From Leyella stercorea (GTDB lineage Bacteria; Bacteroidota; Bacteroidia; Bacteroidales; Paludibacteraceae), in assembly GCA_963658575.1 (NCBI GenBank), contig CAVKQB010000005.1, positions 179 to 64,178 on the forward strand: DNA of 64,000 nt, read 5' to 3'. Shown here piece by piece: positions 14,528 through 59,308 of the stretch; positions within the stretch are counted from its first letter, which is position 1, and every line of letters starts with the position of its first letter. The notes under the pieces were generated by a model that had not been told where the DNA came from, made no database searches, and was given only the letters and a program-made list of their open reading frames with translations. The position numbers were made by a program, and so were the translations under genes.

Positions 14528-14544
14528 TACGTTTCCTCCCCTTA

Positions 14545-15897: not shown

Positions 15898-15921
15898 CTA
15901 ATTTTGATTCAAAATTTTAAC

Positions 15922-16126: not shown

Positions 16127-16190
16127 AGTTTTTCGTTTTTTCTGCTATTCTGTTGATTTATTGTTTTACAAAAAATGCGTGCATTATCGG

Positions 16191-17012: not shown

Positions 17013-17137
17013 CGTTCCGCCACATTACATGTGCAAAGATAGTGTTTTTGTTGATAACTTCCGCCCATTTTATCGCAAAAAATTCGCAGATAAAGTGTAA
17101 TTTTGTGGTTTCGGACACCAACCGTCCGCCCAAAGAG

Positions 17138-20193: not shown

Positions 20194-20221
20194 GAATGGC
20201 GCATCAACACGTGTGCCATTC
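20194..20221 (+). terminator. hairpin terminator after the DUF349 gene
   Basis: GAATGGCGCA-N8-TGTGCCATTC forms a 10-bp stem with one G.U pair, followed by TGTTT. Confidence 0.45.
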
Positions 20222-20524
20222 TGTTTAGTTAGTAGTTAGTAGTTAGTAATGAGGAGTGAGGAGTGAGGAGTGAGGAGTGAGGAGTGAGAAGTTAGAAGTT
20301 AGAAATTGTTGGGCGCGAGCCTGTCCCCTTTGCAAGGGGACGAGAAAAACGGAACGTTTTTCGGGTGGGGTTGATTTTAATTAAGAATTAAGAATGAATA
20401 ATTAAGAATTATTCGCGTCCAAGTTGTCCTTGTTCTTTATTCTATGTTCTTTGTTCTAAAAAATTGCGATAGCAATTTTGAGAAACAATTAAAAAACAGC
20501 AATTCTACAAATTGAAATAAGAAA
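20222..20524. repeat. intergenic repeat mosaic M1 (heptad tract plus shared modules)
   Basis: 92 nt with no C (20222-20313). This tract contains AGTTAGT x3, GAGGAGT x5 (20251-20285) and GAAGTTA units. It is followed by GTTGGGCGCG, the hairpin GTCCCCTT-TGC-AAGGGGAC (20323-20341), TTAAGAA repeats, and the module GTTGTCCTTGTTCTTTATTCTATGTTCTTTGTTCTAAAAAATTGC, which is shared with 39961-40007. Confidence 0.85.
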
Positions 20525-21346
20525 ATGTCAGTACACACACCCGAAGATGCACGCAAAGTTACCACTCGCCGTTTGTGCGAGATGAAACAGCGCGGCGAAA
20601 AGATAAGCATGCTCACCTCGTACGACTACACGATGGCCGAAATCGTGGACAAGGCGGGCATCGACGTGATACTCGTGGGCGACTCCGCCTCGAACGTAGT
20701 GGCCGGCAACGTAACCACGCTGCCCATCACACTCGACCAGATGATATACCACGGCAAATCGGTTGTTCGCGCCGTGAAACGCGCGCTCGTCGTAGTGGAT
20801 ATGCCATTCGGCACCTACCAAACCAGCGACGTGGAGGCCGTGCAGAACGCCATCAAAGTGATGAAGATAACCCACGCCGACGCGCTGAAACTCGAAGGCG
20901 GCGTGGAAATCATCGATGCTGTGAAAAAAATTCTCGCCGCTGGCATTCCCATCATGGGGCACCTCGGACTGATGCCGCAATCGATAAACAAATACGGCAC
21001 CTACACCGTGCGCGCCAAAGACGAAGAAGAGGCCGAAAAACTCGTGTCCGATGCCAAACTGCTCGAAGAGGCGGGCTGTTTTGCGCTTGTGCTCGAAAAA
21101 ATCCCCGCCAAATTGGCTGCACGCGTGGCGCAAGCACTCACCATTCCCGTCATCGGCATCGGAGCGGGCGGAGCGGTCGATGGACAGGTGCTCGTGCTGC
21201 ACGACATGCTCGGACTCACGCAGGGATTCACACCGCGTTTCCTGCGCCGCTACGCCGACCTCAACGCCGTGATGACCGATGCCGTGCACCACTACATTAG
21301 CGACGTGAAATCGTGCGATTTCCCGAATGAGCAGGAGCAGTATTAA
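20525..21346 (+). CDS. panB: 3-methyl-2-oxobutanoate hydroxymethyltransferase
   Basis: 273 aa. The sequence [36 protein letters not shown]...LKLEGG matches the PanB family. Confidence 0.93.
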
Positions 21347-21452
21347 AAAGTGAAAAGTAGAAAGTGAAAAGTGGGAAGAAAATAGACGACGGATTTATCT
21401 GTTCGTCAAAATAGACGATACTTTCACACGCCCCAAAAAAACGCAAACAACC

Positions 21453-25886: not shown

Positions 25887-26192
25887 TTTTTCGTTCATTT
25901 CTTTTGACGACCAAAAGAAACGAACCAAAGAAAAGTCGCCAGCTGGGGCGCGAGCGTTGCCAAAAATTGGCGGTTTTGGTTTCGGCGGCGCCAAAACTCG
26001 CTTCGCTCAGACACTGCCGCCGCTTCTCGAAACACAAAACCTGATTTTTGACACTCGCCGCCCAATGCTGGAATCCCTTTTATCATCAAAATTTGTCAAT
26101 TGCGCCCAACAACTCCTCACTCCTCATTCCTAATTCCTCACTACTAATTAACTTTCTCACTTTCAAACTTTCACACTAATTTCATCTTGCTA
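25887..26192. repeat. intergenic repeat mosaic M3
   Basis: Contains the hairpin GTTCATTTCTTTTG...CAAAAGAAACGAAC. GCGCCCAACAACTCCTCACTCC is the reverse complement of GGAGTGAGGAGTTGTTGGGCGC. An 84-nt tract with no G on the plus strand (26105-26188) has a 7-nt period and reads as a TAG-initiated, C-free heptad tract downstream of the minus-strand gene that ends at 26193. Confidence 0.8.
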
Positions 26193-26693
26193 CTACTCAA
26201 CGTGTTTCGGCATCTCCACCACTTCGAGATTTTGGATTTTGTCGCCATCGATTTCGAAGCGTAGCAGCGTGCGCACTTGGTGAAAGCCGTAGATGCCGGC
26301 CGCTCCGGGGTTCATGGTCAGCATATCGCGTTGCTTGTCGTACTGCACCTTCAGAATGTGCGAATGGCCGCACACAAACAGTCGCGGCTTGTCGGACACG
26401 ATGTGTCGGTAGGCTTGCGGGCTGTAGTGGCCGGGGTAGCCGCCTATGTGTGTCATCAGCACATCGACCGCCTCGCAGCGAAACGCCAGAAATTCGGGGT
26501 AGGTGTAGCGCACAAATCCGCCGTCGACATTGCCATGCACGGCGCGAAGCGGCTTGAATTCGGCCAGACGGCGCGCCACCTCGTCGCTGCCGATGTCGCC
26601 GCAGTGCCAAATCTCGTCGCAATCGGCAAAGTGCGTCAGATAGCGTTCGTCGAAATAGCCGTGTGTGTCCGAAAGCAGACCGATGCGTGTCAT
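26193..26693 (-). CDS. metallophosphoesterase (YfcE/MJ0936 family)
   Basis: 166 aa with motifs LSDTHG, GDIGS, GNVD and CGHSH. Confidence 0.85.
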   Translation of the reverse strand: MTRIGLLSDTHGYFDERYLTHFADCDEIWHCGDIGSDEVARRLAEFKPLRAVHGNVDGGFVRYTYPEFLAFRCEAVDVLMTHIGGYPGHYSPQAYRHIVSDKPRLFVCGHSHILKVQYDKQRDMLTMNPGAAGIYGFHQVRTLLRFEIDGDKIQNLEVVEMPKHVE

Positions 26694-26814
26694 TCTAAAT
26701 CTTCAAATTGAGTTAATCGAGATAACGATTTTTTGTCGCTTCATTGGGCGGTGAATTTGTTGAACCGCCAATCTTCAAATTTTCAAATCTTTCAAATCTT
26801 CAAATGAAGAAATC
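26694..26814. repeat. intergenic spacer with ATCTTCAAAT-type 8-9-nt repeats and a hairpin
   Basis: CTTCAAAT variants occur four times at 26771-26805. GGCGGT-N11-ACCGCC hairpin at 26748-26770. The same repeat word occurs at 35637-35664. Confidence 0.7.
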
Positions 26815-27888
26815 TCATTTCTTCACCAAGATTCCCATGGCATCGAGCACTTTGTCGCGGAAATCGATGTTTTGCTGCACGCCGGCGAAGCGTTCGGCAC
26901 CTGGGCCAAAGGCAAACACAGGCACAGGCACGCCGCTGTGGTCGGGCTTGTTGAATTTGCATTCGACGTGGCCAGTGGCAAAATCGCCGTTGATGATGGA
27001 GAGTGCGCCAGTTTCGTGGTCGGCGGTAATCACCACGAGCGTGTTGCCGTCCTTGCGTGCAAAGTCGAGCACCTTGCCGATGGCGCGGTCGAAATCGAGC
27101 ATTTCGCGAATCATCTCTTCGCCGTTGTTGTTGTGGCATTGGTAGTCGATTTGCGAGCCTTCGACCATGAGGAAGAATCCGTTGGTGTCGCGCGCCAGCA
27201 CTTCGATGGCCTTTTCGACGGCCGATGGCAGGTAGTCGCCGCGCTCGGAGGCTATCGGCATATCGATGTCGGCCAGCGGAGCGAGTATTTTCGGGCTGTT
27301 CGACTTCAGCAGGTCGGCTTCGGTATAGACCACGTCGTAGCCTTTGTCGGCAAATTGGCGCGAGAGGTTTTGTCCGTCGGCACGCTGTTCGAGGTTTTGG
27401 CGGCCGCCGCCAATCAGCACGTCGATGTCGGCAGCGAGCATGTCGAGCGCGATTTCGTCGTACATTTTGCGCGAAATTTGGTGCGCGTAGAAGTCGGCCG
27501 GTGTGGCGTGGGTGAGCGGACACGTTACGACGATGCCCGTGGCTTTGCCGTTTTGGCCGGCGTAGTAGAGCGACGAGTAGAGCGGCGTGATGCTGTCGGG
27601 GGCAAGTCCGACCATGTTGTTGCGTGTTTTGCTGCCCGTGGCCAACGCTGTGCCGCCGGCCGCGCTATCGGTGATGTAGTTGTTGGCCGAGTAGGTTTTG
27701 CTGAATCCGGTGATGGGGCACTGCTCGATGTTGAGCGAGCCGCCATTGGCGGTGAGTGCGGCGTAGATTTGGTTGATTCCCATGCCGTCGCCAATCATGA
27801 ACACGACGTTTTTGACTTTTGGCTGCGCCAGAAGCGACGAGCAGCAGAGTGCTAATAATACTCCACAGAGAAATTTTTTAGTTTGCAT
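26815..27888 (-). CDS. alkaline phosphatase (PhoA family), secreted
   Basis: 357 aa with a signal peptide, VVFMIGDGMGINQ and DSAAGGTALATG (active-site Ser context). Confidence 0.9.
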   Translation of the reverse strand: MQTKKFLCGVLLALCCSSLLAQPKVKNVVFMIGDGMGINQIYAALTANGGSLNIEQCPITGFSKTYSANNYITDSAAGGTALATGSKTRNNMVGLAPDSITPLYSSLYYAGQNGKATGIVVTCPLTHATPADFYAHQISRKMYDEIALDMLAADIDVLIGGGRQNLEQRADGQNLSRQFADKGYDVVYTEADLLKSNSPKILAPLADIDMPIASERGDYLPSAVEKAIEVLARDTNGFFLMVEGSQIDYQCHNNNGEEMIREMLDFDRAIGKVLDFARKDGNTLVVITADHETGALSIINGDFATGHVECKFNKPDHSGVPVPVFAFGPGAERFAGVQQNIDFRDKVLDAMGILVKK

Positions 27889-28924
27889 ATTCGTATTGTA
27901 AATTTTTGAAAATATAATCTACAGGCGGGGTAAAGATATCTCCCTTTATGAGGCTCAATTTGTTTTTAGTGGCTGTAATAGCCAAATCCGATTGGTCGAT
28001 GCCAATCCATTTTCGTCCATTTCTTTGGGCAGCCGCCAACGTGGTACCGCTCCCACAGAAACAGTCCATCACAATACTGTCTTCATTGGAAGAGGTCTTG
28101 ATAATTAAATCCAACATCTCGGCATTTTTCTCGGTTGGGTAATTAGGATATTGTGGGTCTTTATATTCCCAAATATCCTGAACCCTTTTTCCGTCGCGCT
28201 CGTCGGCATAGATGATTTTGCGTGGATTGCCGTTCGACGACCATTCTATCAAACCGACCTTGTCCCATCTTTCCAATGTGGCGACATCTGTCCGCCAATG
28301 CCGCCCTTGCGGCGGGTAAATTCCCTTGAATGGCTGGTTGGATTTCCCGTTTTCGGTTTCGCCAGGGGCGTGAATGGGAACAGTTGTATAGCGTCGGCCG
28401 TTTCGGTCTATTTTCGGGAATAGTTTTTCCACATCTTTTTCCGTGTATTTTTCCCGTGGCTCGTTCCAAATAGGGAAAGATGTTTTGGTATAAAAAAGTA
28501 TCAAATCTTTTATATTGCCGTAACCGATTCTTTCAAAATTTTTCGGATTGCACTTTATGCGTGTAATGTCATTCCTAAAATTTTCGATGCCAAACACTTC
28601 GTCCATCATCACTTTTACATAATGGCCGATTTTGTAGTCGATATGCAGATAAACAGAGCCTTGGTCAGACAACAATTCCCGAATAAGAATCAAACGATTC
28701 CGCAAAAAATCGATAAAATCGCTCCCTTTTAACGTATCGGCATAGGCAATCTCTCCGTTGCGTGAATTGCTAATGGTCGAGGCGCGTCCGTTTGTGATAG
28801 TAAAATTGCCTCCTGTTGCAAAGGGAGGGTCGATATATACCAAATCAATCTTCCCGCCATATCCCTGTTCCAACAGATAGTTCAGCCCTGTAATGTTTTC
28901 ACTATGTATCAGTAGGTTTTTCAT
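27878..28924 (-). CDS. Type II DNA methyltransferase, beta-class (probable N6-adenine)
   Basis: 348 aa. Motif IV (IDPPFATGGNF) is near the N-terminus and motif I (DCFCGSGTTLAAA) near the C-terminus. AT-rich relative to flanking DNA. Its ATG overlaps the upstream endonuclease stop (TAATG). Confidence 0.85.
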   Translation of the reverse strand: MKNLLIHSENITGLNYLLEQGYGGKIDLVYIDPPFATGGNFTITNGRASTISNSRNGEIAYADTLKGSDFIDFLRNRLILIRELLSDQGSVYLHIDYKIGHYVKVMMDEVFGIENFRNDITRIKCNPKNFERIGYGNIKDLILFYTKTSFPIWNEPREKYTEKDVEKLFPKIDRNGRRYTTVPIHAPGETENGKSNQPFKGIYPPQGRHWRTDVATLERWDKVGLIEWSSNGNPRKIIYADERDGKRVQDIWEYKDPQYPNYPTEKNAEMLDLIIKTSSNEDSIVMDCFCGSGTTLAAAQRNGRKWIGIDQSDLAITATKNKLSLIKGDIFTPPVDYIFKNLQYEYAN

Positions 28925-29706
28925 TACAATTGATATAAAAATTCACGCAAAACCAAGGCACTCATAATATTGTATGACTTGTACGTTTCCGTTATTTCCC
29001 GATACATTTTGTTGTTGCCTTTTATGTAGAGTACACCATCGAGAATCGCTATTTTTTCCGCTTTTACACGTTTTGTTTCGACGGTCGAAATAGCATCGTT
29101 GAATTGAGCGTTTTGATGCCCTCCAAAATCAGTCAAAAACTTGGCTTCTCCAATCACATATTTTCCGTTGAAACGACCTACGAAATCAAGTCCCTTGTCT
29201 CTGTCATATCCCAACTCCTCTTTCGCAAAATCCATCATCAATTTATCGTTTCCATCGAGGATGGCATTCCCTTTTGATGAAAGGAACTTTTCCAGCCCTA
29301 CAGGTTTTATTCCTAAAGCCTTTGATTTGAGCCACTCCTTAAACATGGGACCAATTTGCCGATTGGTTTCTTTGGGTTCGCTGCAGCGTTCGTACAATTT
29401 TGACAATCCTAATTCATAAATTCTACCACAAAGACGGTTGATTGTTTCTGGATTCCTTTCGATGGCCGATTTATCTCTCTTTAAGTAAGCAACATAACTA
29501 TCTTTTATGGGAAACAAATCCAATTCCAATAGGGAGCGTATCAGTTGAACATTGTTTTTTTGTTTGAACGCTTTTTCCACATTTCCCCAAACATTACCGT
29601 TTATATCCCTTATCCCTTCTGGAATGGTAGGATATACGCGGAATAGGTCGTCCAAATAAGAACGTTGATTGGCGTATTCGATGCTGAGTTTTGTCCACTT
29701 TTTCAT
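28924..29706 (-). CDS. putative Type II restriction endonuclease (PD-(D/E)xK-like)
   Basis: 260 aa from the ATG at 29706 (MKKWTKLSIEY...). It has a candidate D...E-x-K motif (LDFVGRF...VIGEAKF), is translationally coupled to the methylase, and has AT-rich composition. The family was not identified. Confidence 0.6.
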   Translation of the reverse strand: MKKWTKLSIEYANQRSYLDDLFRVYPTIPEGIRDINGNVWGNVEKAFKQKNNVQLIRSLLELDLFPIKDSYVAYLKRDKSAIERNPETINRLCGRIYELGLSKLYERCSEPKETNRQIGPMFKEWLKSKALGIKPVGLEKFLSSKGNAILDGNDKLMMDFAKEELGYDRDKGLDFVGRFNGKYVIGEAKFLTDFGGHQNAQFNDAISTVETKRVKAEKIAILDGVLYIKGNNKMYREITETYKSYNIMSALVLREFLYQL

Positions 29707-29726
29707 ATCGTTCAAGTTTTTTTGGA

Positions 29727-30077
29727 TTATTCTATTACGACCTCTTCGTCGAAGGCATCGTTGTCGTTGAGTTCGTGGCGGAAGTCGGCGAGTTCGCGGC
29801 GCAGTGCTTCGAGCGTGTCGCGCAGTTTTTGTTTGCGTTCCACATCGCTTTTGTTTGTAGCGAGCCGCTCTTTTGCGCCCGAAATGGTCAGTTTTTGGTC
29901 GTTCAGCAGAAATTGAATCAGTTTCACCGTTTCGATATCGGCGGGACTGTAGTAGCGGCGGCCGTTGGTGCGCTTGGGGTTGAGTTGCGAAAATTCCTTT
30001 TCCCAATAGCGCAAAGTCGAGGCGTTCACGCCGAACTGCTCGGCCACTTCGTTGATGGAGTAATAGGCTTTTTCCAT
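29727..30077 (-). CDS. MerR-family transcriptional regulator
   Basis: The sequence YSINEVAEQFGVNASTLRYWEKEF...RTNGRRYYSPADI is a MerR HTH, followed by a C-terminal coiled coil. The start was taken at MEKAYYS. Composition matches the host. Confidence 0.8.
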   Translation of the reverse strand: MEKAYYSINEVAEQFGVNASTLRYWEKEFSQLNPKRTNGRRYYSPADIETVKLIQFLLNDQKLTISGAKERLATNKSDVERKQKLRDTLEALRRELADFRHELNDNDAFDEEVVIE

Positions 30078-30126
30078 GGATTTTTTTAATTCCCCGATAG
30101 GGAAACGCAACTTTCACATTTTTTAC

Positions 30127-35608: not shown

Positions 35609-35669
35609 TCGTAAGCCGTAAATAACACACTAAATAATCTTCAAATTTTCAAATCTTCAAACAATCACC

Positions 35670-36434
35670 ATGCTATTCCCCGAACCCGTTTTTGGACCGA
35701 TACATAGCCGCCGTTTGGGCGCGTCGCTGGGCGTGAATCTGTTGCCTCCCAACGCCAAAGTCTGTTCGTTCGAGTGTGTCTATTGCGAGTGCGGTTTTGC
35801 CACAGCACACGGCGAAGCGCGCATTCCGTCGCGGCACGACATACGCGAAAAACTCGAAGCAAAACTGCGCGATTTGGCCGCTGCCAATGCGCCCGTCGAT
35901 GTTATCACGTTTGCGGGCAACGGCGAACCGACTCTGCACCCACATTTCGGCGAAATAATCGACGATACCATCGCTCTGCGCAACCGCTACTATCCGTCGG
36001 CCAAGGTGAGCGTGCTGTCGAATGCCACGCGTATACACCGTCCCAGCGTGCGTGCAGCGTTGCTCAAGGTGGACAACAACATTCTGAAACTCGATTCGGC
36101 CATCGAAGCCACCGCGCAACTGATAAACCAACCGCGTAATCCCGATTTTTCGATAGCGAAAATCGTCGATGAAATCGCGACTTTCGACAATGCCGTGGTG
36201 CAAACGCTGTTCTTCACAGGCGACTACAAAGGGCAGCACATCGACAACACGACAGAGCCCGAAATTGCGGCTTGGCTCGATGCGTTGCGCAAAATCAATC
36301 CGCGGCAAGTGATGATTTACTCGCTCGACCGCGCCACGCCCGTCGAAAATCTGAAAAAAGCCTCTCAAGCGACCCTCGATGCCATCGCTGCGCGCGTGCA
36401 GGCGTTGGGCTACGACACGCTGGTGGCGCAATAA
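35670..36434 (+). CDS. radical SAM protein
   Basis: 254 aa with the CxxxCxxC cluster CSFECVYCECG near the N-terminus. Confidence 0.75.
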   Translation: MLFPEPVFGPIHSRRLGASLGVNLLPPNAKVCSFECVYCECGFATAHGEARIPSRHDIREKLEAKLRDLAAANAPVDVITFAGNGEPTLHPHFGEIIDDTIALRNRYYPSAKVSVLSNATRIHRPSVRAALLKVDNNILKLDSAIEATAQLINQPRNPDFSIAKIVDEIATFDNAVVQTLFFTGDYKGQHIDNTTEPEIAAWLDALRKINPRQVMIYSLDRATPVENLKKASQATLDAIAARVQALGYDTLVAQ

Positions 36435-37648: not shown

Positions 37649-38683
37649 GTGGACGCTATGAGAGTGCTTATCATCTGTTTTTCGGGCATCAGCAACGTGG
37701 CATCTGTTGTGCCACCGCTCGATGCGCTCGACAGGCGGTATCCTCAGCACGAATTTACGGTGTTGAGCAGGCACTTTTTGCAGCCGCTGTTCGCACATTT
37801 TGCGCACGTTACGTTTGTGGGAGCCGACATTCGCCGCAAGCACAAAGGGCTGCGTGGTGCGCTCAAACTCTTCGGCGAATTGCGCCGCCAGCGGTTCGAT
37901 GTGGTAGTCGATTTGCAAGATGCGCCGCGCACACGGCTATTGCGCCGGCTTTTTCGCCTTTTTGGTGCAAAAGTGGTAGTGGTCGACAAGCAGCGCGCCG
38001 AACGTCGCCGGTTGATACGCCGTGGAGCGTTGCGCTACAAGCCGCTGAAAACCATTTTCGAGCGTTACAGCGAAGCCTTCGGGCAGATAGGGCTGCAAAC
38101 CGACGACCAATTTGTGCGTATTCCGCCCGCTTCGGACGAAAAACGGCAGAAGGTGGTCGAAATATACGGCGAAAAACGCGGACATTGGATTGGCATCGCC
38201 CCACTGTCGATAGCGCGCGGCAAAACGTTGCCGTTTCGGAAGACAAAAAACGTCATCCGCCACTTCGACAGCCAGCCCGACACCAAGATATTTCTGTTTG
38301 GCGCAGGCGAGATGGAAAACGAACTCTTGGGCGATTGGCAGACCGTGTTCACCAACGTGTATGCCGTGCATACATCGCTCAAACTCGACGAAGAGTTGGC
38401 GCTGATGGAGCAGTTGGACGTGATGGTAACGATGGATTCGGGCAACATGCACTTGGCTGCGCTCACCGCCACGCCTGTGGTGAGCATTTGGGGAGCCACG
38501 CACCCGTATGCGGGCTTTGGCGGCTGGCGACAACCGGCCGAAAACCAAGTGGGCGTCGATTTCTCGTGCCGGCCATGCACCGCACACGAAGCCAAACGGT
38601 GCAAATACGGCGACTACCGCTGCCTCGAAAGCATTCCGTCGGAAAAGATAATCGGCACCATCGAACGAGTTATAAATAGTTAG
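37649..38683 (+). CDS. glycosyltransferase family 9 (heptosyltransferase-like)
   Basis: 344 aa. VTMDSGNMHLAAL resembles the GT9 DSGPMHLAAA motif, and the overall layout fits. The stop TAG is the first triplet of the downstream heptad tract. Confidence 0.75.
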   Translation: MDAMRVLIICFSGISNVASVVPPLDALDRRYPQHEFTVLSRHFLQPLFAHFAHVTFVGADIRRKHKGLRGALKLFGELRRQRFDVVVDLQDAPRTRLLRRLFRLFGAKVVVVDKQRAERRRLIRRGALRYKPLKTIFERYSEAFGQIGLQTDDQFVRIPPASDEKRQKVVEIYGEKRGHWIGIAPLSIARGKTLPFRKTKNVIRHFDSQPDTKIFLFGAGEMENELLGDWQTVFTNVYAVHTSLKLDEELALMEQLDVMVTMDSGNMHLAALTATPVVSIWGATHPYAGFGGWRQPAENQVGVDFSCRPCTAHEAKRCKYGDYRCLESIPSEKIIGTIERVINS

Positions 38684-39056
38684 TAGTGAGAAGTGAGTAA
38701 TTAGTAGTGAGGAGTGAGGAATGAGATTAGAAATGAGAAATTAGGAGTGAGGAATTAGGAGTTGTTGGGCGCGATTCTGTCCCTCTGCTTGGAGCGAAGC
38801 GGAAAGATAGGGGGACGAGGAGCGATAGCGACGGAGGGGGTTCTTTCCTAATTAAGAATTATGAATTAAGAATTTTTTCGGTAAGCGAGAGCAGAGTCAA
38901 ACTTGTTTGAACTATGCCGAGCGGAGAAAAAAAGCGCGTAGCGAATGAATAATAATCCTCAAATAACCAAATAACCAAATCCACAGAAACTTAGAAACGC
39001 GCGTAGCGCAATCAAATAACCAAATCCACAGAAATTTAGAAACAATACGAAAAACT
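38681..39056. repeat. intergenic repeat mosaic M6
   Basis: 89-nt C-free heptad tract (38681-38769). GTTGGGCGCG. A ~215-nt module (38775-38990) recurs at 41945-42150. Two copies of AAATAACCAAATCCACAGAAAnTTAGAAAC. GCGC-GTA-GCGC hairpin at 38999-39009. Confidence 0.85.
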
Positions 39057-39815
39057 ATGGGTAAAATAATTGCAATTGCCAACCAAAAAGGCGGTGTAGG
39101 CAAAACCACCACAAGCATCAATTTGGCGGCCTCGCTTGCGCACTACGGCAAGAAAGTGCTGCTCGTAGATGCCGACCCACAGGCCAACGCCTCGACGGGG
39201 CTCGGGTTCGACATCAAAAACCAAGACAAAACCATCTACCAAAGCCTCATCGGCAAAATAGAGATGCGCGAAGCCGTGCGCCACACCGAAGTCGAAAACC
39301 TCGACCTCGTTACGTCCGACATCAATCTGGTGGGCGTAGAGGTGGAACTGTACGAAGTGGCCGACCGCGAACTCTACATGCGCCGCGCGCTGAATCAGGT
39401 GAAAGACGACTACGACTACATACTGATAGACTGCTCGCCGTCGCTCGGACTGATTACGCTCAATGCGCTCACCGCCGCCAATTCAGTGATCATACCCGTG
39501 CAGAGCGAATACTTTGCGCTCGAAGGCATCGGCAAACTGCTGCACACCATCAAACTGCTGAAAGGCCAATTGAATCCGTCGCTCAAAATCGAAGGCTTCG
39601 TGCTGACCATGTTCGACGCACGCTTGCGCCACGCCAACCAAGTGGCCACCGAAGTGAAGAGCCATTTTGGCGATATGGTGTTCAACACTATGATTCAGCG
39701 CAACGTGAAACTGAGCGAAGCCGCCAGTTACGGGCAGCCAGTGCTGCAATACGACCCCGAATCGCGCGGCGCCATCAACTATCTCGATTTGGCCAAAGAA
39801 CTTATTAACCGTTAG
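39057..39815 (+). CDS. parA: chromosome partitioning ATPase ParA/Soj
   Basis: 252 aa starting MGKIIAIANQKGGVGKTTTSINLAASLA (deviant Walker A). Confidence 0.95.
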   Translation: MGKIIAIANQKGGVGKTTTSINLAASLAHYGKKVLLVDADPQANASTGLGFDIKNQDKTIYQSLIGKIEMREAVRHTEVENLDLVTSDINLVGVEVELYEVADRELYMRRALNQVKDDYDYILIDCSPSLGLITLNALTAANSVIIPVQSEYFALEGIGKLLHTIKLLKGQLNPSLKIEGFVLTMFDARLRHANQVATEVKSHFGDMVFNTMIQRNVKLSEAASYGQPVLQYDPESRGAINYLDLAKELINR

Positions 39816-40182
39816 TCGCAAGATATGAGTAGCAAGACACAAGACAATTAGAACAAAGAGCAATTGAATTAGTAGCAAGATATGAGTAGCAAGTAGCAAG
39901 AAAATTTTAGAAATGAGGAGTTAGGAGTGAGAAGTGAGGAATGCATAATTGTTCGCACCAAGTTGTCCTTGCTCTTTATTCTATGTTCTTTGTTCTAAAA
40001 AATTGCAAATCCCGCGCAACCAAATAACCAAAAACCTAAAAACAAAAATTGCGGTAGCAATTTTGAGAAACCTAGAAACGTGCGAAGCACGAGAAACTTA
40101 GAAACAGCGCGAAGCGCAAAAAACTTAGAAACCTAGAAACGTGCGTAGCACGAAAACAATCAACCAAAGATTTCAAAAACCA
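39813..40182. repeat. intergenic repeat mosaic M7 separating parA from parB
   Basis: Starts at the parA stop TAG. Contains 7-nt periodic TAGCAAG/TGAGGAG units, a shared ~50-nt module (39961-40007), and three GC-clamped GNA-triloop hairpins (40079-40091, 40107-40117, 40140-40152) interleaved with (C/T)TAGAAAC words. Confidence 0.85.
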
Positions 40183-41063: not shown

Positions 41064-41738
41064 ATGACCAAACGTCTTGCTCTCGCAATCGGTATTTTGG
41101 CGGCAAGCCTCGCAGGTTTGCACGCACAGACACCCGCAGACGGCTTCGCCCCACAAGTGCAAGCCGACGAGCAAGTGTTCACCGTGTCCGACACGGCCGT
41201 ATTTTTCACCGAAGCGCGGCCGGCACCCGTCCAACGCCACTACGACCACGAAGTGTGGCTGCCCGACCCCAAGAAATCGCTTTGGTACGCATTCATATTC
41301 CCCGGTTTGGGGCAAATATACAACCGCAGTTATTGGAAATTGCCGATAGTTTACGGCGGCACCATCGGGTTTGTCTATGGCATAACGTGGAACAACCGCT
41401 ACTACCAAGAGTACTCGCGCGCCTACCGCGATGTGATGGGCAGCAACCCCACGGGGCGCAGTTACGACAATCTGCTGCCGCCCGGCACCGACCCAACATC
41501 GGATTACGCCAAAAATTTGCTCAAAAGCCAGCACAACACCTACCGCCGCTACCGCGACTTGTGCATCGTGGGAGCCGTGGCGTTTTATGCGCTCACCATC
41601 GTCGAGGCCTATGTCGATGCGCAATTGGCCGACTTCGACATCAGTCCCGACCTGTCGATGCATGTGCGCCCCACCGTCTTTCTCACCGAAAACAACCAAA
41701 ACCCAAATTTCGGTGTGGGCGTGGGGATTAAATTTTAG
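41064..41738 (+). CDS. DUF5683 domain protein (conserved downstream of parB in Bacteroidetes)
   Basis: 224 aa with a signal peptide, then SLWYAFIFPGLGQIYNRSYWKLPIVYGG. It lies in frame inside the over-extended ORF 40446-41738. Confidence 0.75.
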   Translation: MTKRLALAIGILAASLAGLHAQTPADGFAPQVQADEQVFTVSDTAVFFTEARPAPVQRHYDHEVWLPDPKKSLWYAFIFPGLGQIYNRSYWKLPIVYGGTIGFVYGITWNNRYYQEYSRAYRDVMGSNPTGRSYDNLLPPGTDPTSDYAKNLLKSQHNTYRRYRDLCIVGAVAFYALTIVEAYVDAQLADFDISPDLSMHVRPTVFLTENNQNPNFGVGVGIKF

Positions 41739-42170
41739 TTAGCAGTTAGTAGTGAGCAGTGAGGAGTTAGGAATGAGGAGTGGTGCGGCGAAGCCGCAAT
41801 TTCAAGAACAAAGAATATAGAACATAGAGCAAAGACTTTTTAATTATCTAATTATTTAATTTCCAATTATTTAATCAATTTTAGATTTCGAATTGACAGA
41901 TTGAGGATTCAATGATTCAATAAATCAATAAGTCAATGATTCATTTCTGTCCCTCTGCCGAGCGCAGCGAGGATAGGGGGACGAGGAGCGACAGCGACGG
42001 AGGGGGTTGAAACCAATTAAGAATTAAGAATTTTTTCGGTAAGCGAGAGCAGAGTCAAACTTGTTTGAACTATGCCGAGCGGAGAAAAAATGCGCGCAGC
42101 GAATTAAGAATGAATAATAATCTCCAAATAATCAAATAACCAAATCTCCAAAAGCCAAAAAAACTTTCCT
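41736..42170. repeat. intergenic repeat mosaic M8
   Basis: TAG-initiated heptad tract, TGCGGC-GAA-GCCGCA hairpin (41784-41798), AT-rich word repeats (AATTATTTAAT, TCAATGATTCA), and the second copy of the ~215-nt module (41945-42150). Confidence 0.85.
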
Positions 42171-44897: not shown

Positions 44898-45989
44898 ATG
44901 GCAGCACACGATACAAATATCGACCTAAACGAGTACATGCGCCAAACCGAGCCGCAAAAAAACGACAAGGTAAAAGCATGGCAGGTAGCCATCGGCCTAC
45001 AAGCCGTCGATGGTTTGACCACGTCCGACTATTTGCTATCGACCGCCAAAAGACACATCGACGGCGACCTATCCATTGCCGAAGTGCAGGATTTGATTGG
45101 GCAATACTACACAACACAAGAAGGGCGCGCCCTCAACGAGGCAAAAAGAACCGAAGAGGCCGACAAAGTGGCGGCAAACATCACCGAAATACTCGGACAA
45201 AACACATTCACTTTTTCTCCAGCAGGATTTGCGGCAATTCACCGGCGGCTTTTCACGGGCATACTGCACCACGCAGGGCAATACCGCACCTACAACATCA
45301 CAAAACAAGAGTGGGTTTTGCGTGGCGACAGCGTTATCTACACCGACTACAGCATGATAGCCGACACCCTTGCCTTCGATTTCGAGCAAGAAAATCCATC
45401 GGCCTATACGCAGATGGACATGCCAACACTGATTCACCACATTTGCAAGTTCATTGCTGGCATTTGGCAGATACACCCATTCGAAGAGGGCAACACGCGC
45501 ACAACGGCCATTTTTACCATCAAATACCTGCGGAGTCTGGGGTTGAACGTGGACAATTCCGCCTTTTCCGAACACTCATGGTATTTCCGGAACGCGCTGG
45601 TACGCGCCAACTACCACAATTACCAAAAAGGCATTGCCGACACAAACGAATTTCTCGAACTCTTCTTCAGAAACCTACTGCTCGGAGAGCATAACAGCCT
45701 GAAAAACAGGTATATGCTCGTCGGTGCAACATGGCAACACCAGCAAAAAGTACCGGCAAAAGTACCGAGAAAAAGTACCGAGAAAAGTACCGAGAAAAGT
45801 ACCGAGAAAAGTACCGAGAAAATTTTGGCGCTCATGAAGCGCAAGCCCAGCATCACCATCAAGGAACTGTGCGCCGCCCTGCCTATGTCTGACAAAGGTG
45901 TGCGCAAAAACATAAACAAACTGAAAGAACAAGGCCGTTTGCGCCGCATTGGCCCCGACAAAGGCGGCTCGTGGCAAGTAACCGGCTGA
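44898..45989 (+). CDS. Fic/DOC-family protein with C-terminal winged-helix domain
   Basis: 363 aa with the Fic motif HPFEEGNTRTTAIF, a (STEK)4 linker repeat, and a C-terminal HTH-like region (ITIKELCAALPMSDKGVRKNINKLKEQGRLRRIG). Confidence 0.85.
   Translation: MAAHDTNIDLNEYMRQTEPQKNDKVKAWQVAIGLQAVDGLTTSDYLLSTAKRHIDGDLSIAEVQDLIGQYYTTQEGRALNEAKRTEEADKVAANITEILGQNTFTFSPAGFAAIHRRLFTGILHHAGQYRTYNITKQEWVLRGDSVIYTDYSMIADTLAFDFEQENPSAYTQMDMPTLIHHICKFIAGIWQIHPFEEGNTRTTAIFTIKYLRSLGLNVDNSAFSEHSWYFRNALVRANYHNYQKGIADTNEFLELFFRNLLLGEHNSLKNRYMLVGATWQHQQKVPAKVPRKSTEKSTEKSTEKSTEKILALMKRKPSITIKELCAALPMSDKGVRKNINKLKEQGRLRRIGPDKGGSWQVTG
45746..45823 (+). repeat. tandem AAAGTACCG(R)(S)A repeats inside the Fic gene
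   Basis: Four perfect 12-nt units AGTACCGAGAAA (45774-45821) are preceded by two degenerate units. A 13-nt unit shifts the reading frame of the repeat, from KVP to STE. Confidence 0.9.
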
Positions 45990-46255: not shown

Positions 46256-47908
46256 ATGCCCACACTCAATTGGATTGGAAAAGAGAAAGTCGTTACTCAC
46301 GCCGACCATGTCCCCTACCGTGTATTAGACCACAAGTACGACTATGGCGAGCCGACGGATAGCCCTGCGGCGGGCGAGGACGGAGGCAATATGATTATTC
46401 ACGGCGACAATCTCGAAGCCCTGAAAGCCCTGCTGCCAAAGTACGAGAACAAGGTGGACTGCATCTACATCGACCCGCCGTACAACACGGGCAACGAGGG
46501 TTGGGTGTACAACGACAATGTGAACGACCCGCATATTCGCAAGTGGTTGGGCGAGGTGGTAGGCAAAGAAGCCGAAGACCTCACCCGCCACGACAAGTGG
46601 CTATGCATGATGTACCCCCGTTTGGTGCTGCTGCAAAAACTCCTTTCTCCCACAGGGGCTATCTTTATCTCCATAGACGACAACGAACAAGCCAACCTCA
46701 AACTCATCTGCGACGAGATTTTCGGCGCAGGGAACTTTGTGGCTTGTTACTTGTGGAATAAAACATCCACGCCACCAGCTTTATCCAAGAAGGTTAGACG
46801 AACGCACGAATATATTCTTTGTTACAATAAAAACAATGATGGTTCTCAAAAATATATAGGATTGGTCAACGATGGAGGCGATGCTCCAATTCTAAACGAA
46901 ATAAACAAAGAGATTACCCTTTCTTTTCCGGCAAATTATGTTGTTACAACCTTACCTGATGGGATTTACAATGCTGGTGATAGGGAACGGGTATGTTTAC
47001 TTAATGATGTTGTTGTTTCTAATGGAATAATAAAATCTCCCTTTCAGTTGAAAGGGCATTTTCGATGGACACAAAGTACGCTTGACTATGAAATCAGTCA
47101 AAAGTGTCGCTTGATAATCAAGAGTAATAAATTTGCAATAAGGTATTGCCGACAAGAAGACAGAACTGTAGCACCTCCTAACTTTATCACAGAGCGTTTT
47201 TATTTAGGAACGGCTATTGATAAAGAAACGAATGTAGATACCAATGATAAGGCGGGTGAAGAATTGAAATGTATTTTTGGTTCTAAGGTTTTTGAGTTCC
47301 CTAAACCACACTCACTAATTGAATACCTTATAGGCTTCTTAGGCAATCCCAACGCCCTTATCCTCGACTCCTTTGCGGGTAGCGGCACAACCGCCCACGC
47401 TGTCTTGAATCTCAACAAGCAGGACGGGGGACACCGCCGCTTTATCTTGGTCGAGATGTGCGACTATGCCGAGACCATTACCGCCGAGCGGGTGCGGCGT
47501 GTCATTAGTGGCTACGGCGAGGGCAGCAAAGCCGTGGAGGGGACGGGCGGCACATTCTCCTACTACGAACTGGGCGAGACCCTGTTTCATGGCGAAAACC
47601 TAAACGAAAACGTCGGCACCGAAAAACTGCGCGAATACATCTGGTACTGCGAGACACGCACGCCCTACGCCAAAAACGGAGCGGCAAGCGCAAATGCCTA
47701 TCATTTGGGCAATTACAATAATGTAGGCTATTACTTCTACTACGAACGGGACAAAACGACCACATTGGACAAAGCGTTTTTGAACACCATTGCCGCACGC
47801 GCCGACCAATACATCGTCTATGCCGACAATTGCCTGTTGAGCGTCGAATTTATGCAAGCCAACCATATCATTTTCAAAAAGATACCGCGCGACATACGCA
47901 GATTTTAA
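46256..47908 (+). CDS. mod: Type III restriction-modification methyltransferase (Mod), N6-adenine
   Basis: 550 aa. Motif IV is CIYIDPPYNTGNEGW and motif I is LDSFAGSGTTAHAV. A central AT-rich target-recognition region lies between them. A Res gene follows. Confidence 0.9.
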   Translation: MPTLNWIGKEKVVTHADHVPYRVLDHKYDYGEPTDSPAAGEDGGNMIIHGDNLEALKALLPKYENKVDCIYIDPPYNTGNEGWVYNDNVNDPHIRKWLGEVVGKEAEDLTRHDKWLCMMYPRLVLLQKLLSPTGAIFISIDDNEQANLKLICDEIFGAGNFVACYLWNKTSTPPALSKKVRRTHEYILCYNKNNDGSQKYIGLVNDGGDAPILNEINKEITLSFPANYVVTTLPDGIYNAGDRERVCLLNDVVVSNGIIKSPFQLKGHFRWTQSTLDYEISQKCRLIIKSNKFAIRYCRQEDRTVAPPNFITERFYLGTAIDKETNVDTNDKAGEELKCIFGSKVFEFPKPHSLIEYLIGFLGNPNALILDSFAGSGTTAHAVLNLNKQDGGHRRFILVEMCDYAETITAERVRRVISGYGEGSKAVEGTGGTFSYYELGETLFHGENLNENVGTEKLREYIWYCETRTPYAKNGAASANAYHLGNYNNVGYYFYYERDKTTTLDKAFLNTIAARADQYIVYADNCLLSVEFMQANHIIFKKIPRDIRRF

Positions 47909-47919
47909 CCCGTAGAGCC

Positions 47920-50565
47920 ATGGAACTGAAACCCTATCAGCAACAAATAATAGACGACCTGCGCCGTTTCATGCTTTGTGTGCAGGAGAAGAAAAACATC
48001 GGCGATGCGTTCAACGCCTTTTGGGTTGGTCATCTGCGCACGCCGCTCACTCCATTCCCTGGCGAGGCGGTGGAGCCGTACAAAAACAACGTGAAAAATG
48101 CGCCTCACGTTTGCATAAAAGTGCCCACGGGCGGCGGCAAAACCTTTATCGCCTCGGCAGCGTTGAAGACCATTTTCGACGCATTTGATGCGACGCGTTT
48201 CCGTGCCGTGGTTTGGCTGGTTCCGTCCATCACCATTTTGGAGCAAACGCTGCGCAACTTGCGCAACCCCAGCCATCCGTACAGGCAGCGCATCAATGCC
48301 GATTTTGCCAATCGTGTCGAGGTTTTCGGCAAAGATCAAGCCTTGCAAGGCGCGGGTTTTTCGCTACCAGTAGCCAAAGAGAACCTGTGCATACTTGTGA
48401 TGAGTTTCGACAGTCTGCGCGCTAAAAAGAAAGAAGACCGCAAAGTGTATCAGGAAAATGGCAACCTGCAATCGTTCGAAACACTTGTGAGCAAAGACGA
48501 AAACGGCGACCCCGAATTGCAGTTGATGAAGGTGTTGCAAGCCATGAATCCCGTAGTGGTAGTGGACGAAAGCCACAATGCCGAAAGCGATTTGAGCGTG
48601 GAAATGCTGCAAAACCTGAATCCGAGTTTTGTGCTCGACCTCACGGCCACACCACGCCGGCACAGCAACATCATCAGTTTCACCGATGCCTACGAGTTGA
48701 AGAGAGAAAGCATGGTGAAGTTGCCCGTAATCGTCTACAACCACCAAAGCCGCAACGATGTGATTTCGTCGGCGTTGGAACTGCAGCGCCGCTTGGAAAA
48801 CGAGGCCAACAAGGCGCAAGCAGACGGAGGCCGCTACATTCGCCCCATCGTGCTGTTTCAGGCGCAACCACGCACCGACGATGAGAACGTTACCTTCGAA
48901 AAAATCAAACGGACACTGCTCGAACTGAAAATTCCCGAAAACCAAATCCGTATCAAAACCGCCGACCGCAACGAGATAAAAGACGTGGATTTGCTTTCGC
49001 CCGACTGCGAAGTGCGTTACATCATCACAGTGAACGCCCTGAAAGAGGGTTGGGATTGTCCGTTTGCCTACATTTTGGCATCGTTGGCCGACAAGAGTTC
49101 GCCGGTAGATGTGGAACAGATTTTAGGCCGTGTGCTACGCATGCCTTGGGTGCGGAGCAGCAAAAATGCCATGCTCAATATGAGTTATGTGCTGACCGCC
49201 TCGCCCAAATTTCTCGATACGCTCGACAACATCGTCAAAGGGTTGAATCGTGCCGGATTTAGCGATAAGGATTACAAAATTGCGGAACCCGAAAAGCCGA
49301 AAGAAGCGACCGCCGCAGAACCGGCGCAAACCATGGGCTCTCTGTTCGCGCCTCGAGGTGCCGCGCCAGCAACAGACAAACCAGACACCGACGAATTTGA
49401 TGCGGGGAAAATTCATTTTTCGCTGCAGCCGACAGAGGACGATACGAAATCGGCAACCATCAACAGCGATGTAGACAAAATAGAAGAACAAGCGAAAGCC
49501 GAAGCAGAAAAAGCAGCACAGCACGAAAAACAGGACAACAACGGAACCGATAACGTTCCGACAGCATTGGAAAATCAAGTGAAAAAGTACAAAATGAAGG
49601 AGATTTTCAGCGAATCGGCCAAATCGCTGAAACTGCCGCAATTTATGAGCAATAACGGGCAAAAACTTACCAATTGCCTATTCGTGGACTTGCCACAAAC
49701 GGCCATTTTTGAATCCGAGGAACTGTTGCGCGACTTCAAATTGGGCAACGAAAACTCGGAAATAAACTTCGACAGCGTCGAAACATCGATGTATCGCGTA
49801 GATTTGGACGAAACGAACGACTACAAGCCAACCTATCTGAAAGTAGAGGGCGGCGTTCACGAAAAAATTGTGGATTACCTACTCGACCCCAAACAAAAAG
49901 GGAAGCGCGTCGAAAACTGCACGTTTCGTCTGAAAAACATCATCGGCAAAATGTATCCTATCCCCGACAAGGAAATAGAACTTTACATTTCCCGTGTATT
50001 AGAGCGGTTTTCCGACGAGCAATTCTCCGACCTGCTGAATCACGAATACTCGTATGCCGATAAAATCAAAGCAAAAATCAAGCAGTTGAGCGAGGCTTAT
50101 AAGGAACGGCAATTTTTCGATATGGTCGATAGAGACCTGATTTTTACAGCAGAAACCTATCGTTTGCCCGCGGAAATTATTCCTACAAAAGTCATTTCGG
50201 GCTTACCAAAATCGCTCTACGACAAGGAAGGAGACATTGACGATTTCGAAAGAGAGGTGATTAACGATGTAGCCAATCTCGAAAATGTGGAATTTTGGAC
50301 ACGCAACCTTGAGCGCGGCAAAGGATTTCACATAAACGGTTTCATCAACCATTATCCCGATTTTATCATCAAAACGAAAAAGGGGAAAATCGTTCTGCTC
50401 GAGACCAAAGGCGACCATTTGGATGCCGAAAAAAGAATAAAACTCGGAAATTTGTGGGCAACCAAGGCTGGGAACGATTACAAATACTGCTTGGTCTATA
50501 ATATCCGCCAAGTGGACGGTGCTTACACCAAAGACCGTTTCATCGACTTGCTCCGAAATTGGTGA
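47920..50565 (+). CDS. res: Type III restriction enzyme Res subunit (SF2 helicase-nuclease)
   Basis: 881 aa from MELKPYQQQIIDDL. Motif I is VPTGGGKTFIA and motif II is VVVDESHNA. The start was moved from 47830 to 47920. Confidence 0.9.
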   Translation: MELKPYQQQIIDDLRRFMLCVQEKKNIGDAFNAFWVGHLRTPLTPFPGEAVEPYKNNVKNAPHVCIKVPTGGGKTFIASAALKTIFDAFDATRFRAVVWLVPSITILEQTLRNLRNPSHPYRQRINADFANRVEVFGKDQALQGAGFSLPVAKENLCILVMSFDSLRAKKKEDRKVYQENGNLQSFETLVSKDENGDPELQLMKVLQAMNPVVVVDESHNAESDLSVEMLQNLNPSFVLDLTATPRRHSNIISFTDAYELKRESMVKLPVIVYNHQSRNDVISSALELQRRLENEANKAQADGGRYIRPIVLFQAQPRTDDENVTFEKIKRTLLELKIPENQIRIKTADRNEIKDVDLLSPDCEVRYIITVNALKEGWDCPFAYILASLADKSSPVDVEQILGRVLRMPWVRSSKNAMLNMSYVLTASPKFLDTLDNIVKGLNRAGFSDKDYKIAEPEKPKEATAAEPAQTMGSLFAPRGAAPATDKPDTDEFDAGKIHFSLQPTEDDTKSATINSDVDKIEEQAKAEAEKAAQHEKQDNNGTDNVPTALENQVKKYKMKEIFSESAKSLKLPQFMSNNGQKLTNCLFVDLPQTAIFESEELLRDFKLGNENSEINFDSVETSMYRVDLDETNDYKPTYLKVEGGVHEKIVDYLLDPKQKGKRVENCTFRLKNIIGKMYPIPDKEIELYISRVLERFSDEQFSDLLNHEYSYADKIKAKIKQLSEAYKERQFFDMVDRDLIFTAETYRLPAEIIPTKVISGLPKSLYDKEGDIDDFEREVINDVANLENVEFWTRNLERGKGFHINGFINHYPDFIIKTKKGKIVLLETKGDHLDAEKRIKLGNLWATKAGNDYKYCLVYNIRQVDGAYTKDRFIDLLRNW

Positions 50566-58692: not shown

Positions 58693-58829
58693 CTCTTCCT
58701 CTTTTTAGTCAAAAAAAGTTCTCTTCTCCAAAATTGGCGGCAAAAGTAGAACTTTTTTCTAATGCAACCAAACTTTTCGCTCGTTGGCAGTTCACTTTTT
58801 TGCGCATTCTACGCCACCAACAGAGCCTA

Positions 58830-59308
58830 AGTTGCTGACTATTTGAGGATTTGAGGATTATTATTCATTGTTAATTATTCATTCTTAATTCTTAATTAGT
58901 CTTTAACCCCCTCCGTCGCTACGCTCCTCGTCCCCCTATCCTCGCTGCGCTCGGCAGAGGGACAGAATTGAATCATTGAATCACTGAATTATTGAATGAT
59001 TGAATTTTGGGGCGCATTCTCTCCCCCTGCTGCGCAGCAGATAGGGGGAGTACCCACGCAGTGGGGGTAGGGGTTTTATGTCAATTGACAATTGATAATG
59101 AACAATGAATAATTGTTTGCGCCCAAAATCATCTTTGCTCTATGTTCTAAAAAAAGCACGGGATTACAAATCCCGTGCGACCAAAAAATTGAATCATTGA
59201 CTTATTGAATTCTCAATTTGTAAATTTTTCATTATCAATTATCCATTGTCAATTAAACAACTCCTCACTCCTCATTTCTCACTACTAACTGCTAACTCCT
59301 CACTCCTA
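58830..59308. repeat. intergenic repeat mosaic M9
   Basis: Inverted partial copy of the M6/M8 module (58905-58967). Hairpins CTGCTGC/GCAGCAG, CCCAC-GCA-GTGGG (59053-59065) and GCACGGGAT-TACAA-ATCCCGTGC. AT-rich word repeats. G-poor heptad tract (59248-59316), which on the minus strand begins with the TAG stop of the gene ending at 59306. Confidence 0.85.

Follow-up and report, generated by a model that had tools for sequence, protein, structure and literature searches.

Analysis of a 64,000-nt stretch of the Leyella stercorea contig CAVKQB010000005.1 (hereafter the window, i.e. the whole of this stretch) revealed seven tracts of 40-130 nt composed of degenerate heptads of the form K-A-G-D-A-G-T, all of them in the sense orientation 3′ of a gene. 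The tracts are hypervariable simple-sequence repeats (SSRs) and fall within a class of heptameric intergenic repeats already known to be over-represented, polar and hypervariable, encountered here in a gut-type Bacteroidales organism with unusually modular spacers. The explanation that we consider probable is that these heptameric SSR arrays form the stop-proximal module of repeat-built spacers which have spread in one Paludibacteraceae-like sub-lineage of the Bacteroidales. They are lineage-specific, dispensable expansions and not conserved regulatory elements, because four related lineages lack the tracts at the same gene junctions.

The unit variants read from the arrays include TAGTAGT, GAGGAGT, GAGAAGT and GAGGAAT. 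Period 7 was detected by Tandem Repeats Finder at all seven sites (71-97% matches), which identifies them as head-to-tail 7-nt arrays. Each of the seven sites per 64 kb is intergenic or covers merely the last codons of a gene, and further sites are present in two related lineages, L132 (GCA_963608875.1) and L136. The tract reported first (T4, 38681-38769, plus strand) is composed of 12 degenerate heptads and starts with the TAG stop codon of the GT9 gene (38681-38683). An initial interpretation made from the letters alone (the sequence-only reading) had described it as devoid of cytosine from this stop codon onwards; this was borne out, and the C-free run is even longer, spanning 103 nt (38667-38769) and opening within the last five GT9 codons.

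Three further plus-strand tracts directly adjoin a stop codon. T5 (39813-39945) starts with the parA TAG (39813-39815), contains C-bearing heptads of the AGTAGCA/AGACACA type up to position 39897, and continues with KAGNAGT heptads (39898-39943) that make up a C-free run of 46 nt. T6 (41736-41783) starts with the TAG of the DUF5683 gene (41736-41738) and has six to seven heptads, including TAGCAGT and GAGCAGT, followed by the hairpin GCGGCGAAGCCGC. T2 (21347-21385) consists of AAAGTGA-type heptads directly 3′ of the panB TAA (21344-21346) and lies within a C-free run of 48 nt (21339-21386). On the minus strand, T3 (26105-26195) starts with the TAG of the Metallophos_2 gene (26195-26193) and carries the junction TTGTTGGGCGCAA (26112-26100) at its far end, while T7 (59248-59308), composed of seven heptads, starts with the TAG (59308-59306) of a zinc-ribbon gene (59306-61228, minus strand). 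These two tracts appear on the plus strand as G-free runs of 84 nt (26105-26188) and 42 nt (59249-59290), respectively.

The remaining tract, T1 (20222-20313, plus strand), is C-free over 92 nt and comprises 12 heptads (TTAGTAG three times, TGAGGAG five times, TGAGAAG, TTAGAAG and others). It begins 56 nt past the TAA stop codon of a DUF349 gene (18424-20166), directly 3′ of a hairpin (20194-20221). The earlier description of the tracts was accurate, including its placement of the stop codons, apart from small corrections: T1 does not start at a stop codon, and three tracts do contain cytosine, with 12 residues in 39813-39945, two in 41736-41783 and two in 59248-59308, located in TAGCAGT and AGTAGCA units.

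The window has a G+C content of only 51.4%, although a GC-rich genome had been assumed. The longest run lacking C or G reached a mean of 37 nt and a maximum of 61 nt in 200 shuffles of the whole window, and a maximum of 68 nt in 500 shuffles of intergenic DNA, versus the 103 nt observed. Chance composition was thereby ruled out, and the statement that such runs cannot arise by chance holds for independent bases; it becomes trivial once a C-free unit is repeated in tandem. Such tandem copying accounts for the 7-nt periodicity as well as for the missing cytosine.

The predicted minimum free energy (MFE) of the T4 RNA is −0.9 kcal/mol in the sense and 0 kcal/mol in the antisense orientation; a structured RNA was rejected, as the arrays have no fold either way. 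Rfam yielded no matches in the whole window at gathering thresholds and none in the segment 38600-42250 at E≤1. The palindromes or terminal inverted repeats typical of repetitive extragenic palindromes (REPs) or MITEs (miniature inverted-repeat transposable elements) are lacking from the arrays, hairpins being confined to the adjacent GC modules. No intrinsic terminator (a GC-rich hairpin followed by a U-run) was identified inside the arrays, the hairpin preceding T1 (20194-20221) being one with a T-rich tail, and a scan of the spacers for sigma-70 promoters and terminators gave nothing informative within them. G-runs of three or more, and with them G-quadruplex motifs, are absent (the units contain at most GG). 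The arrays also differ from phase-variation (contingency) SSRs, as they are located past stop codons and not in an open reading frame (ORF) or a promoter spacer.

Five tracts (T3, T4, T5, T6 and T7) start with the TAG of the upstream gene. All five genes abutted in this way end with TAG, a codon used by only nine of the 48 genes in the window (TAA, 31; TGA, 8); the hypergeometric probability of this outcome is 126/1,712,304 = 7e-5. Gene ends also differ between array-bearing and other genomes. ParA terminates with INR-TAG in the window versus INRN-TAA or INRK-TAA in relatives, and is one residue shorter than the aligned ParA proteins of L132, L134 and L136 (253 aa, TAA stop). The GT9 protein ends with RVINS* or RVLLE* in array-bearing genomes versus HTLEQKEQQKKKI* in a compact relative. 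In L132 and L136 the last codons and the stop codon of the RibD gene are read from AGTAGCA/AGTCGCA-type heptads; the RibD stop codon (TAG) of the window is followed only by a vestigial TAGTCGT unit.

These comparisons show that the array has overwritten the 3′ end of the gene and provides its stop codon. Every tract carries stop codons in all three frames in the sense direction, as the sequence-only reading had observed, and few in the antisense direction. Since the arrays overlap ORF ends and contain three-frame stops, a gene ends at the first in-frame stop of its array, and the phasing to stop codons is a by-product. The same point has already been made for forward TAACTGA repeats, which necessarily terminate ORFs (MacGregor 2015, PMC4679880).

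The variability of the arrays is evident from strains that encode identical proteins. Among those with identical PanB, the window has 12 units at T1 and L137 has 17; L138 also has 17, though ordered differently, and L139 at least 13. These differences are confined to unit positions 1 (G/T) and 4 (G/A/T), the pattern expected if existing unit variants were duplicated, lost and shuffled. Between strains with identical ParA, T4 varies by +7 nt (L002) and −15 nt (L003) and by a few substitutions, including some to C. T2 has gained one additional 7-nt unit in L139. The neighbouring TTGTTCT and AATTAAG arrays also vary by whole units. Other changes affect longer segments: at the T1 site a GC hairpin module is swapped for a different hairpin module between conspecific strains, and 53 nt are missing from the GT9-parA spacer of strain L001. 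Four independent metagenome-assembled genome (MAG) assemblies code for identical ParA and PanB and carry the same tracts. The two proteins are also encoded on short-read contigs of separate sequencing runs, which contain the AAAGTGA tract, or extend into or break within the same spacers. The source MAGs are GCA_963653575.1, GCA_963619205.1, GCA_963632395.1 and GCA_963613495.1, a compact sister is represented by contig k141_381303 of ERZ27271083, and SRR19415678, SRR19415681 and SRR13434675 are examples of runs from samples that contain the organism.

Comparison with related lineages showed that the gene order RibD-rSAM-GT-GT9-ParA-ParB-DUF5683 is kept, whereas the lengths of the spacers vary. 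Paludibacteraceae MAGs are the source of the nearest named homologues of ParA, which share 83% identity with the window protein; DUF5683 and Por_Secre_tail domains are also present. In the window, the gaps between GT9 and parA, between parA and parB, and between the DUF5683 gene and the next gene are 373, 367 and 432 nt, respectively. The same three gaps measure 363, 10 and 351 nt in L132, 162, 69 and 96 nt in L136, and 21, 20 and 18 nt in L134, and range from −8 to +34 nt in L144, L145 and L146. The separation of parA and parB is 0-69 nt in six related lineages versus 367 nt in the window. Arrays of period 7 or 8 cover 1.5-5.4% of the sequence in the window, L132, L133 and L136 versus 0.15-0.46% in L134, L144, L145 and L146. 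The L132 and L136 spacers are built from partly different modules, but still contain sense KAGNAGT or AGTCGCA heptads at the stop codon and G-free arrays before the start codon. L132 is even richer than the window in spacer DNA built from repeats (19% intergenic, 4.8% period-7/8 arrays; positions 13641-14158, 15888-16504 and 16978-17575). A pair of genes of the YafQ/ParE toxin type is inserted in its syntenic region.

The placement and orientation of the arrays at gene 3′ ends proved to be systematic, as had been claimed. In the window, L132 and L136 all 12 KAGNAGT sites, representing nine distinct gene ends, are in the sense orientation, 0-92 nt past the stop codon. A replication-strand bias was rejected, since at 26 kb and 59 kb minus-strand tracts follow minus-strand genes amid plus-strand tracts. 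Six of the seven tracts are located between co-directional genes and only T3 faces a convergent gene. Across 27 co-directional spacers divided into sextiles, the sense GC skew declines from +0.27 (first) to −0.14 (last; Wilcoxon p=0.004).

To place the arrays in a wider context, the genomes of 185,579 species were scanned for three consecutive KAGKAGT units, which yielded at least 120 loci. The taxa among the matches listed include Nostocales, many Bacteroidales (Alistipes, Prevotella, Muribaculaceae, Paludibacteraceae), Planctomycetes and others; none of these matches came from the source lineage, and a metagenome scan with the GC module specific to that lineage yielded no contigs from it. 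Among the matches listed, 67 arrays located no more than 50 nt from a gene 3′ end are sense versus 24 antisense (p=7e-6), a count based on crude longest-ORF gene calls that may inflate the 'sense at stop' class. With the same gene calls, sense arrays in co-directional spacers lie at a relative position of 0.19 and antisense arrays at 0.68 (p=7e-5) among the matches listed.

Strict Bacteroidetes-type promoter motifs (TTTG-N17-23-TAnnTTTG) are confined to intergenic DNA, where they precede start codons by 24-88 nt. Shine-Dalgarno (SD)-like 4-mers precede three of 48 start codons, which equals background, in leaders composed of 45% A and 13% G. Together with the ParA homologues and the domains mentioned above, these features indicate a Bacteroidales genome with SD-independent initiation, in agreement with the earlier remark that the phylum largely avoids SD-led starts. 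Ribosomes of Bacteroidia are reported to be SD-blind, their anti-SD sequence being sequestered (PMC7797042, PMC9976891, PMC13000453).

We propose that the arrays would grow by replication slippage or unequal recombination, and that their polarity may reflect a selective filter and not a dedicated function. Beside a stop codon, only the stop-rich purine strand would spare the upstream ORF during expansion or contraction of an array. More generally, the sense strands of spacers would be C-poor past stops and G-poor ahead of starts, the latter being in keeping with SD-blind Bacteroidia ribosomes, for which leaders would have to be G-poor and unstructured (PMC7797042, PMC9976891, PMC13000453). The arrays are probably unstructured filler in 3′ untranslated regions (UTRs) or in terminator-proximal DNA, with any translational insulation arising as a by-product.

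Several observations weigh against this explanation. Arrays are present at the end of the DUF5683 gene in L132 and L136 as well as in the window (none was found there in L134), and their retention in three lineages indicates that an array is more than a transient feature at some sites. If the array simply supplied a stop codon, a less strict polarity would be predicted, as T1 is sense-oriented although located 56 nt beyond the stop and past a hairpin; C-poor trailers away from a stop codon, as at T1, and the predominance of periods 7 and 8 lie outside what this explanation covers. Several C-free units (KAGNAGT, AAAGTGA, GTGAAAGT and ATTTGAAG) share the post-stop position, which hints at selection on transcript composition. 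Finally, the array census covers the window and the syntenic loci, approximately 100 kb of the clade, and the cross-phylum statistics depend on the gene calls mentioned above.

Selection on the transcript is the core of an alternative that we regard as unlikely, in which the C-free arrays are 3′-UTR or intercistronic elements that keep Rho off long untranslated spacers, so that transcription reaches a hairpin terminator or the next gene. Rho loads on C-rich, G-poor, unstructured RNA. The sense RNA of the arrays is C-free and unstructured, and its complement is G-free with abundant C; an inverted array would therefore form a strong Rho utilisation (rut) site and cause polarity, which would account for the strict sense orientation at all 12 sites, including T1, which does not adjoin a stop codon. 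The gradient of GC skew along the spacers and the insertion of spacers into ancestral operon junctions, such as that between parA and parB, are also consistent with protection from Rho. However, G-free, C-containing arrays (CAAATAAC, AATCTTCA) occur on the sense strand further down the spacers and would themselves be rut-like, some spacers have promoter motifs of their own, so that read-through is possibly unneeded, and the relatives work without any spacer.

Distinctly unlikely, though compatible with the SSR explanation, is a mobile cassette: the arrays would head a self-propagating, polar 'terminator-promoter' spacer element, spread by recombination or in a MITE-like manner, which inserts at gene junctions and splits operons. 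This would fit the dispersed modules, which are 93-98% identical between copies and constant in order and orientation relative to transcription in several spacers, the exchange of a module between strains, the 367-nt spacer with a promoter-like module between parA and parB in this species only, and the breaks of short-read contigs within spacers. Against it, neither terminal inverted repeats nor target-site duplications were detected, and no transposase either (no search was aimed at a REP-associated tyrosine transposase, RAYT). The heptad parts of different spacers are only 81-92% alike, much below the GC modules, and the orthologous spacers of L132 and L136 consist of different modules; the pattern equally fits growth in situ combined with gene conversion.

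A bolder version of the same idea receives an equally low probability. According to it, SD-blind Bacteroidia would have a spacer grammar of their own that is polar and propagates itself, with the heptad arrays as its functional head; a C-free trailer would be followed by a hairpin, then a promoter and finally a G-free leader. With the same small likelihood, this grammar would have invaded junctions and split ancestral operons (parA|parB), its C-free head being selected against Rho or for the disposal of terminating ribosomes. If true, the arrays would belong to a modular intergenic element of a new kind, regulatory or mobile, and would not be neutral microsatellites.

The complement of the arrays had been recognized as G-free, which was confirmed and extended by its complete lack of structure (MFE 0 kcal/mol). 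A C-rich, G-free, unstructured strand is the textbook composition of a rut site, which is typically C-rich, G-poor and unstructured over approximately 70 nt or more; the T4 complement, with no G and an MFE of 0, conforms to this in composition only. It is very unlikely that such sites serve to end antisense transcripts entering gene 3′ ends. Unlike rut sites, the arrays are tandem repeats, and there is no obvious source of antisense transcripts, as co-directional genes flank six of the seven tracts and T3 alone faces a convergent gene. Moreover, 24 arrays are antisense at 3′ ends among the cross-phylum loci, and the arrays are absent from sister lineages and hypervariable in length.

Still less probable is that the tracts are translational insulators, their three-frame stops being selected against read-through or frameshifted ribosomes, or that their AGGAG motifs tether the anti-SD sequence of 16S rRNA. 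Dense AGGAG arrays do exist as described (the seven tracts contain 18 of the 77 motifs counted over the two strands of the window), and three-frame stops are present in every tract. Such stops, however, are automatic for the unit, as with TAACTGA (PMC4679880), and 12-17 units are present where one or two would do. Tethering is difficult to reconcile with SD-blind ribosomes whose anti-SD is sequestered and with the background level of SD-like 4-mers, and both roles with the related lineages that lack the tracts. For an insulator, a Rho-dependent terminator or a 16S tether, the three roles put forward by the sequence-only reading, no supporting evidence was found; absence from four lineages and unit-wise variability point away from a dedicated element.

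An assembly or scaffolding artefact, named at the outset as grounds for abandoning the observation, can be dismissed almost with certainty: short-read contigs frequently end within the spacers, but the same tracts recur with small unit-wise differences in the four independent MAG assemblies, and contigs of separate runs contain the AAAGTGA tract or enter these spacers.

For decades, an over-representation of heptameric repeats has been observed in many bacteria. In Xanthomonas (GGGAATC) and Nostoc (GGGGA[C/T]T), G-rich heptameric SSRs are mostly located on the coding strand 0-50 bp past a stop codon, or overlap it (Rehm et al. 2015, PMC4692102). Upstream of start codons the non-coding strand carries them, and close relatives differ in these repeats (PMC4692102). 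The arrays described here resemble them in being 7-nt tandem units that are mostly intergenic, with extensive variation in length and sequence among close relatives. They also share the location of the G-rich strand on the coding strand within approximately 50 bp of the stop codon, an orientation found at 12 of 12 sites in the clade. They differ in that KAGDAGT lacks G-runs and G-quadruplex potential, in the host phylum (Bacteroidota), in the sense post-stop orientation being the only one here, and in heading mosaic spacers composed of other 7-8-nt arrays and hairpins.

Enterobacterial REPs and bacterial interspersed mosaic elements (BIMEs) are mosaic intergenic repeats assembled from a few dispersed modules, including GC-rich hairpins, often past gene ends. 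The spacers of the window are likewise built from a small set of dispersed modules whose content is strain-variable; in contrast to REPs and BIMEs, the heptad arrays are non-palindromic and unfolded, and the resemblance is limited to the neighbouring GC modules. Classical short tandemly repeated repetitive (STRR) units are sequences different from KAGDAGT. With the STRR heptanucleotides of Calothrix and Nostoc (cited in PMC4692102), which are dispersed, non-coding, hypervariable tandem heptamers used in strain fingerprinting, the resemblance is one of kind, without shown homology or common origin. Many Nostocales genomes carry triple KAGKAGT arrays among the matches listed.

The TAACTGA direct repeats of Beggiatoaceae, Cyanobacteria and some Bacteroidetes are mostly found just upstream of start codons, and a role in translational regulation has been proposed for them (MacGregor 2015, PMC4679880). 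Like these, the arrays are intergenic heptamer direct repeats that contain forward stops in three frames and can therefore overlap only the ends of ORFs. Relatives without repeats at the same junctions are known in both cases, and other heptamers co-occur in spacers of Gramella and Aequorivita (PMC4679880). The arrays do not belong to the TAACTGA family: their unit is KAGDAGT and they follow stop codons.

In the window the heptad arrays constitute the first module of long spacers that are built from 7-8-nt arrays, GC-rich hairpin repeats and longer dispersed modules. Further array units in these spacers are AATTAAG, TTGTTCT, GATTCAAT, TAATTATC, CAAATAAC and ATTTGAAG. The GC modules fold at −35 and −27 kcal/mol. 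T4 is followed (38762-38841, plus strand) by the junction TTGTTGGGCGCGA and a GC-rich hairpin repeat (CTGTCCCTCTGC...GATAGGGGGACGAGGAGCG...GGAGGGGGTT) with an RNA MFE of −35 kcal/mol and a z-score of −2.1. The rest of the GT9-parA spacer (38850-39056, plus strand) contains AATTAAG heptads (38850-38874), a 97-nt dispersed module (38857-38953), G-free CAAATAAC octads (38948-38985 and 39010-39035) and AGAAAC and GC-hairpin units. Copies of the GC-rich hairpin repeat are located at 38777-38841, 41947-42008 and, on the minus strand, 58905-58965. The repeat is REP-like, without a match to an Rfam family, and also occurs in L137 and L138 (at approximately 2740-2810); a related copy is present in an unrelated 182-kb metagenome contig (L127, 152-188 and 5250-5284).

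The spacer between the DUF5683 and HHH_3 genes (41784-42170, plus strand) comprises arrays of AGAACAT, TAATTATC and GATTCAAT, a GC module, AATTAAG heptads, the 97-nt module and CAAATAAC octads. Its module set and order are as in the GT9-parA spacer, with copies D4, D14 and I1 being 95%, 97% and 93% identical, respectively. The spacer past T7 (58693-59247, minus strand) shares these modules, and their order relative to transcription is unchanged. It contains the one strict promoter motif of Bacteroidetes type found in the array-headed spacers (58772-58741), 49 nt ahead of the next start codon and far downstream of T7.

The rest of the parA-parB spacer (39946-40182, plus strand) is composed of TTGTTCT heptads, a promoter-like palindromic module, CAAATAAC-type octads and 27-nt AGAAAC/GC-hairpin repeats (40065-40132). 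The palindromic module is 98% identical to positions 20419-20486 upstream of panB. It contains a near-consensus Bacteroidetes −33/−7 motif (TTTG-N19-CAATTTTG) and a perfect palindrome (AAAATTGC-N4-GCAATTTT), and parB may thus have acquired a promoter or operator of its own. An octad array of ATTTGAAG (26768-26805, minus strand), C-free on the sense strand, lies directly 3′ of the stop codon of gene 26815-27888 (minus strand). The same octad in the inverted form, AATCTTCA, is G-free on the sense strand and is found directly ahead of a start codon (35619-35671, plus strand).

The locus offers a clean natural comparison, in which a shared gene order combines junctions of 0-20 nt in some lineages with repeat-built spacers of 350-430 nt in others, including a split parA-parB pair. 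As strains of one species differ by whole units, the polarity relative to transcription and the effects on termination, Rho loading and expression become testable. In practical terms, the arrays rewrite protein C-termini and stop codons, are potential strain markers and break short-read assemblies. The panB contigs of L140-L143 (short-read, single runs) begin within the spacer built from repeats, only approximately 64-72 nt upstream of panB, and such spacers evidently interrupt assemblies of this type.

Other features of the window include a low-GC island on the minus strand (10843-15897), whose G+C content at third codon positions (GC3) is 0.36-0.42 versus approximately 0.65-0.72 elsewhere. 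Its genes encode a protein with DndE-like and HerA/AAA domains, an SMC/AAA_23 (DndD-like) ATPase, and a protein with PAPS-reductase and Sp-DndD (DndC-like) domains; from its gene content and composition the island looks like a horizontally acquired DNA phosphorothioation cluster of the dnd type. Two restriction-modification (R-M) systems were also distinguished, one (27878-30117, minus strand) composed of an N6/N4 methylase and a Tsp45I-type II endonuclease, the other (46256-50565, plus strand) of a type III-like methylase and a ResIII helicase/endonuclease. A link between the arrays and the neighbouring Dnd and R-M genes was considered, and no evidence for it was found. A 12-nt tandem repeat, AAAAGTACCGAG (6.3 copies, 93% matches, 45746-45822), is located in the 3′ part of a Fic/HTH gene (44898-45989); the repeat is in frame and therefore encodes a repeated tetrapeptide.

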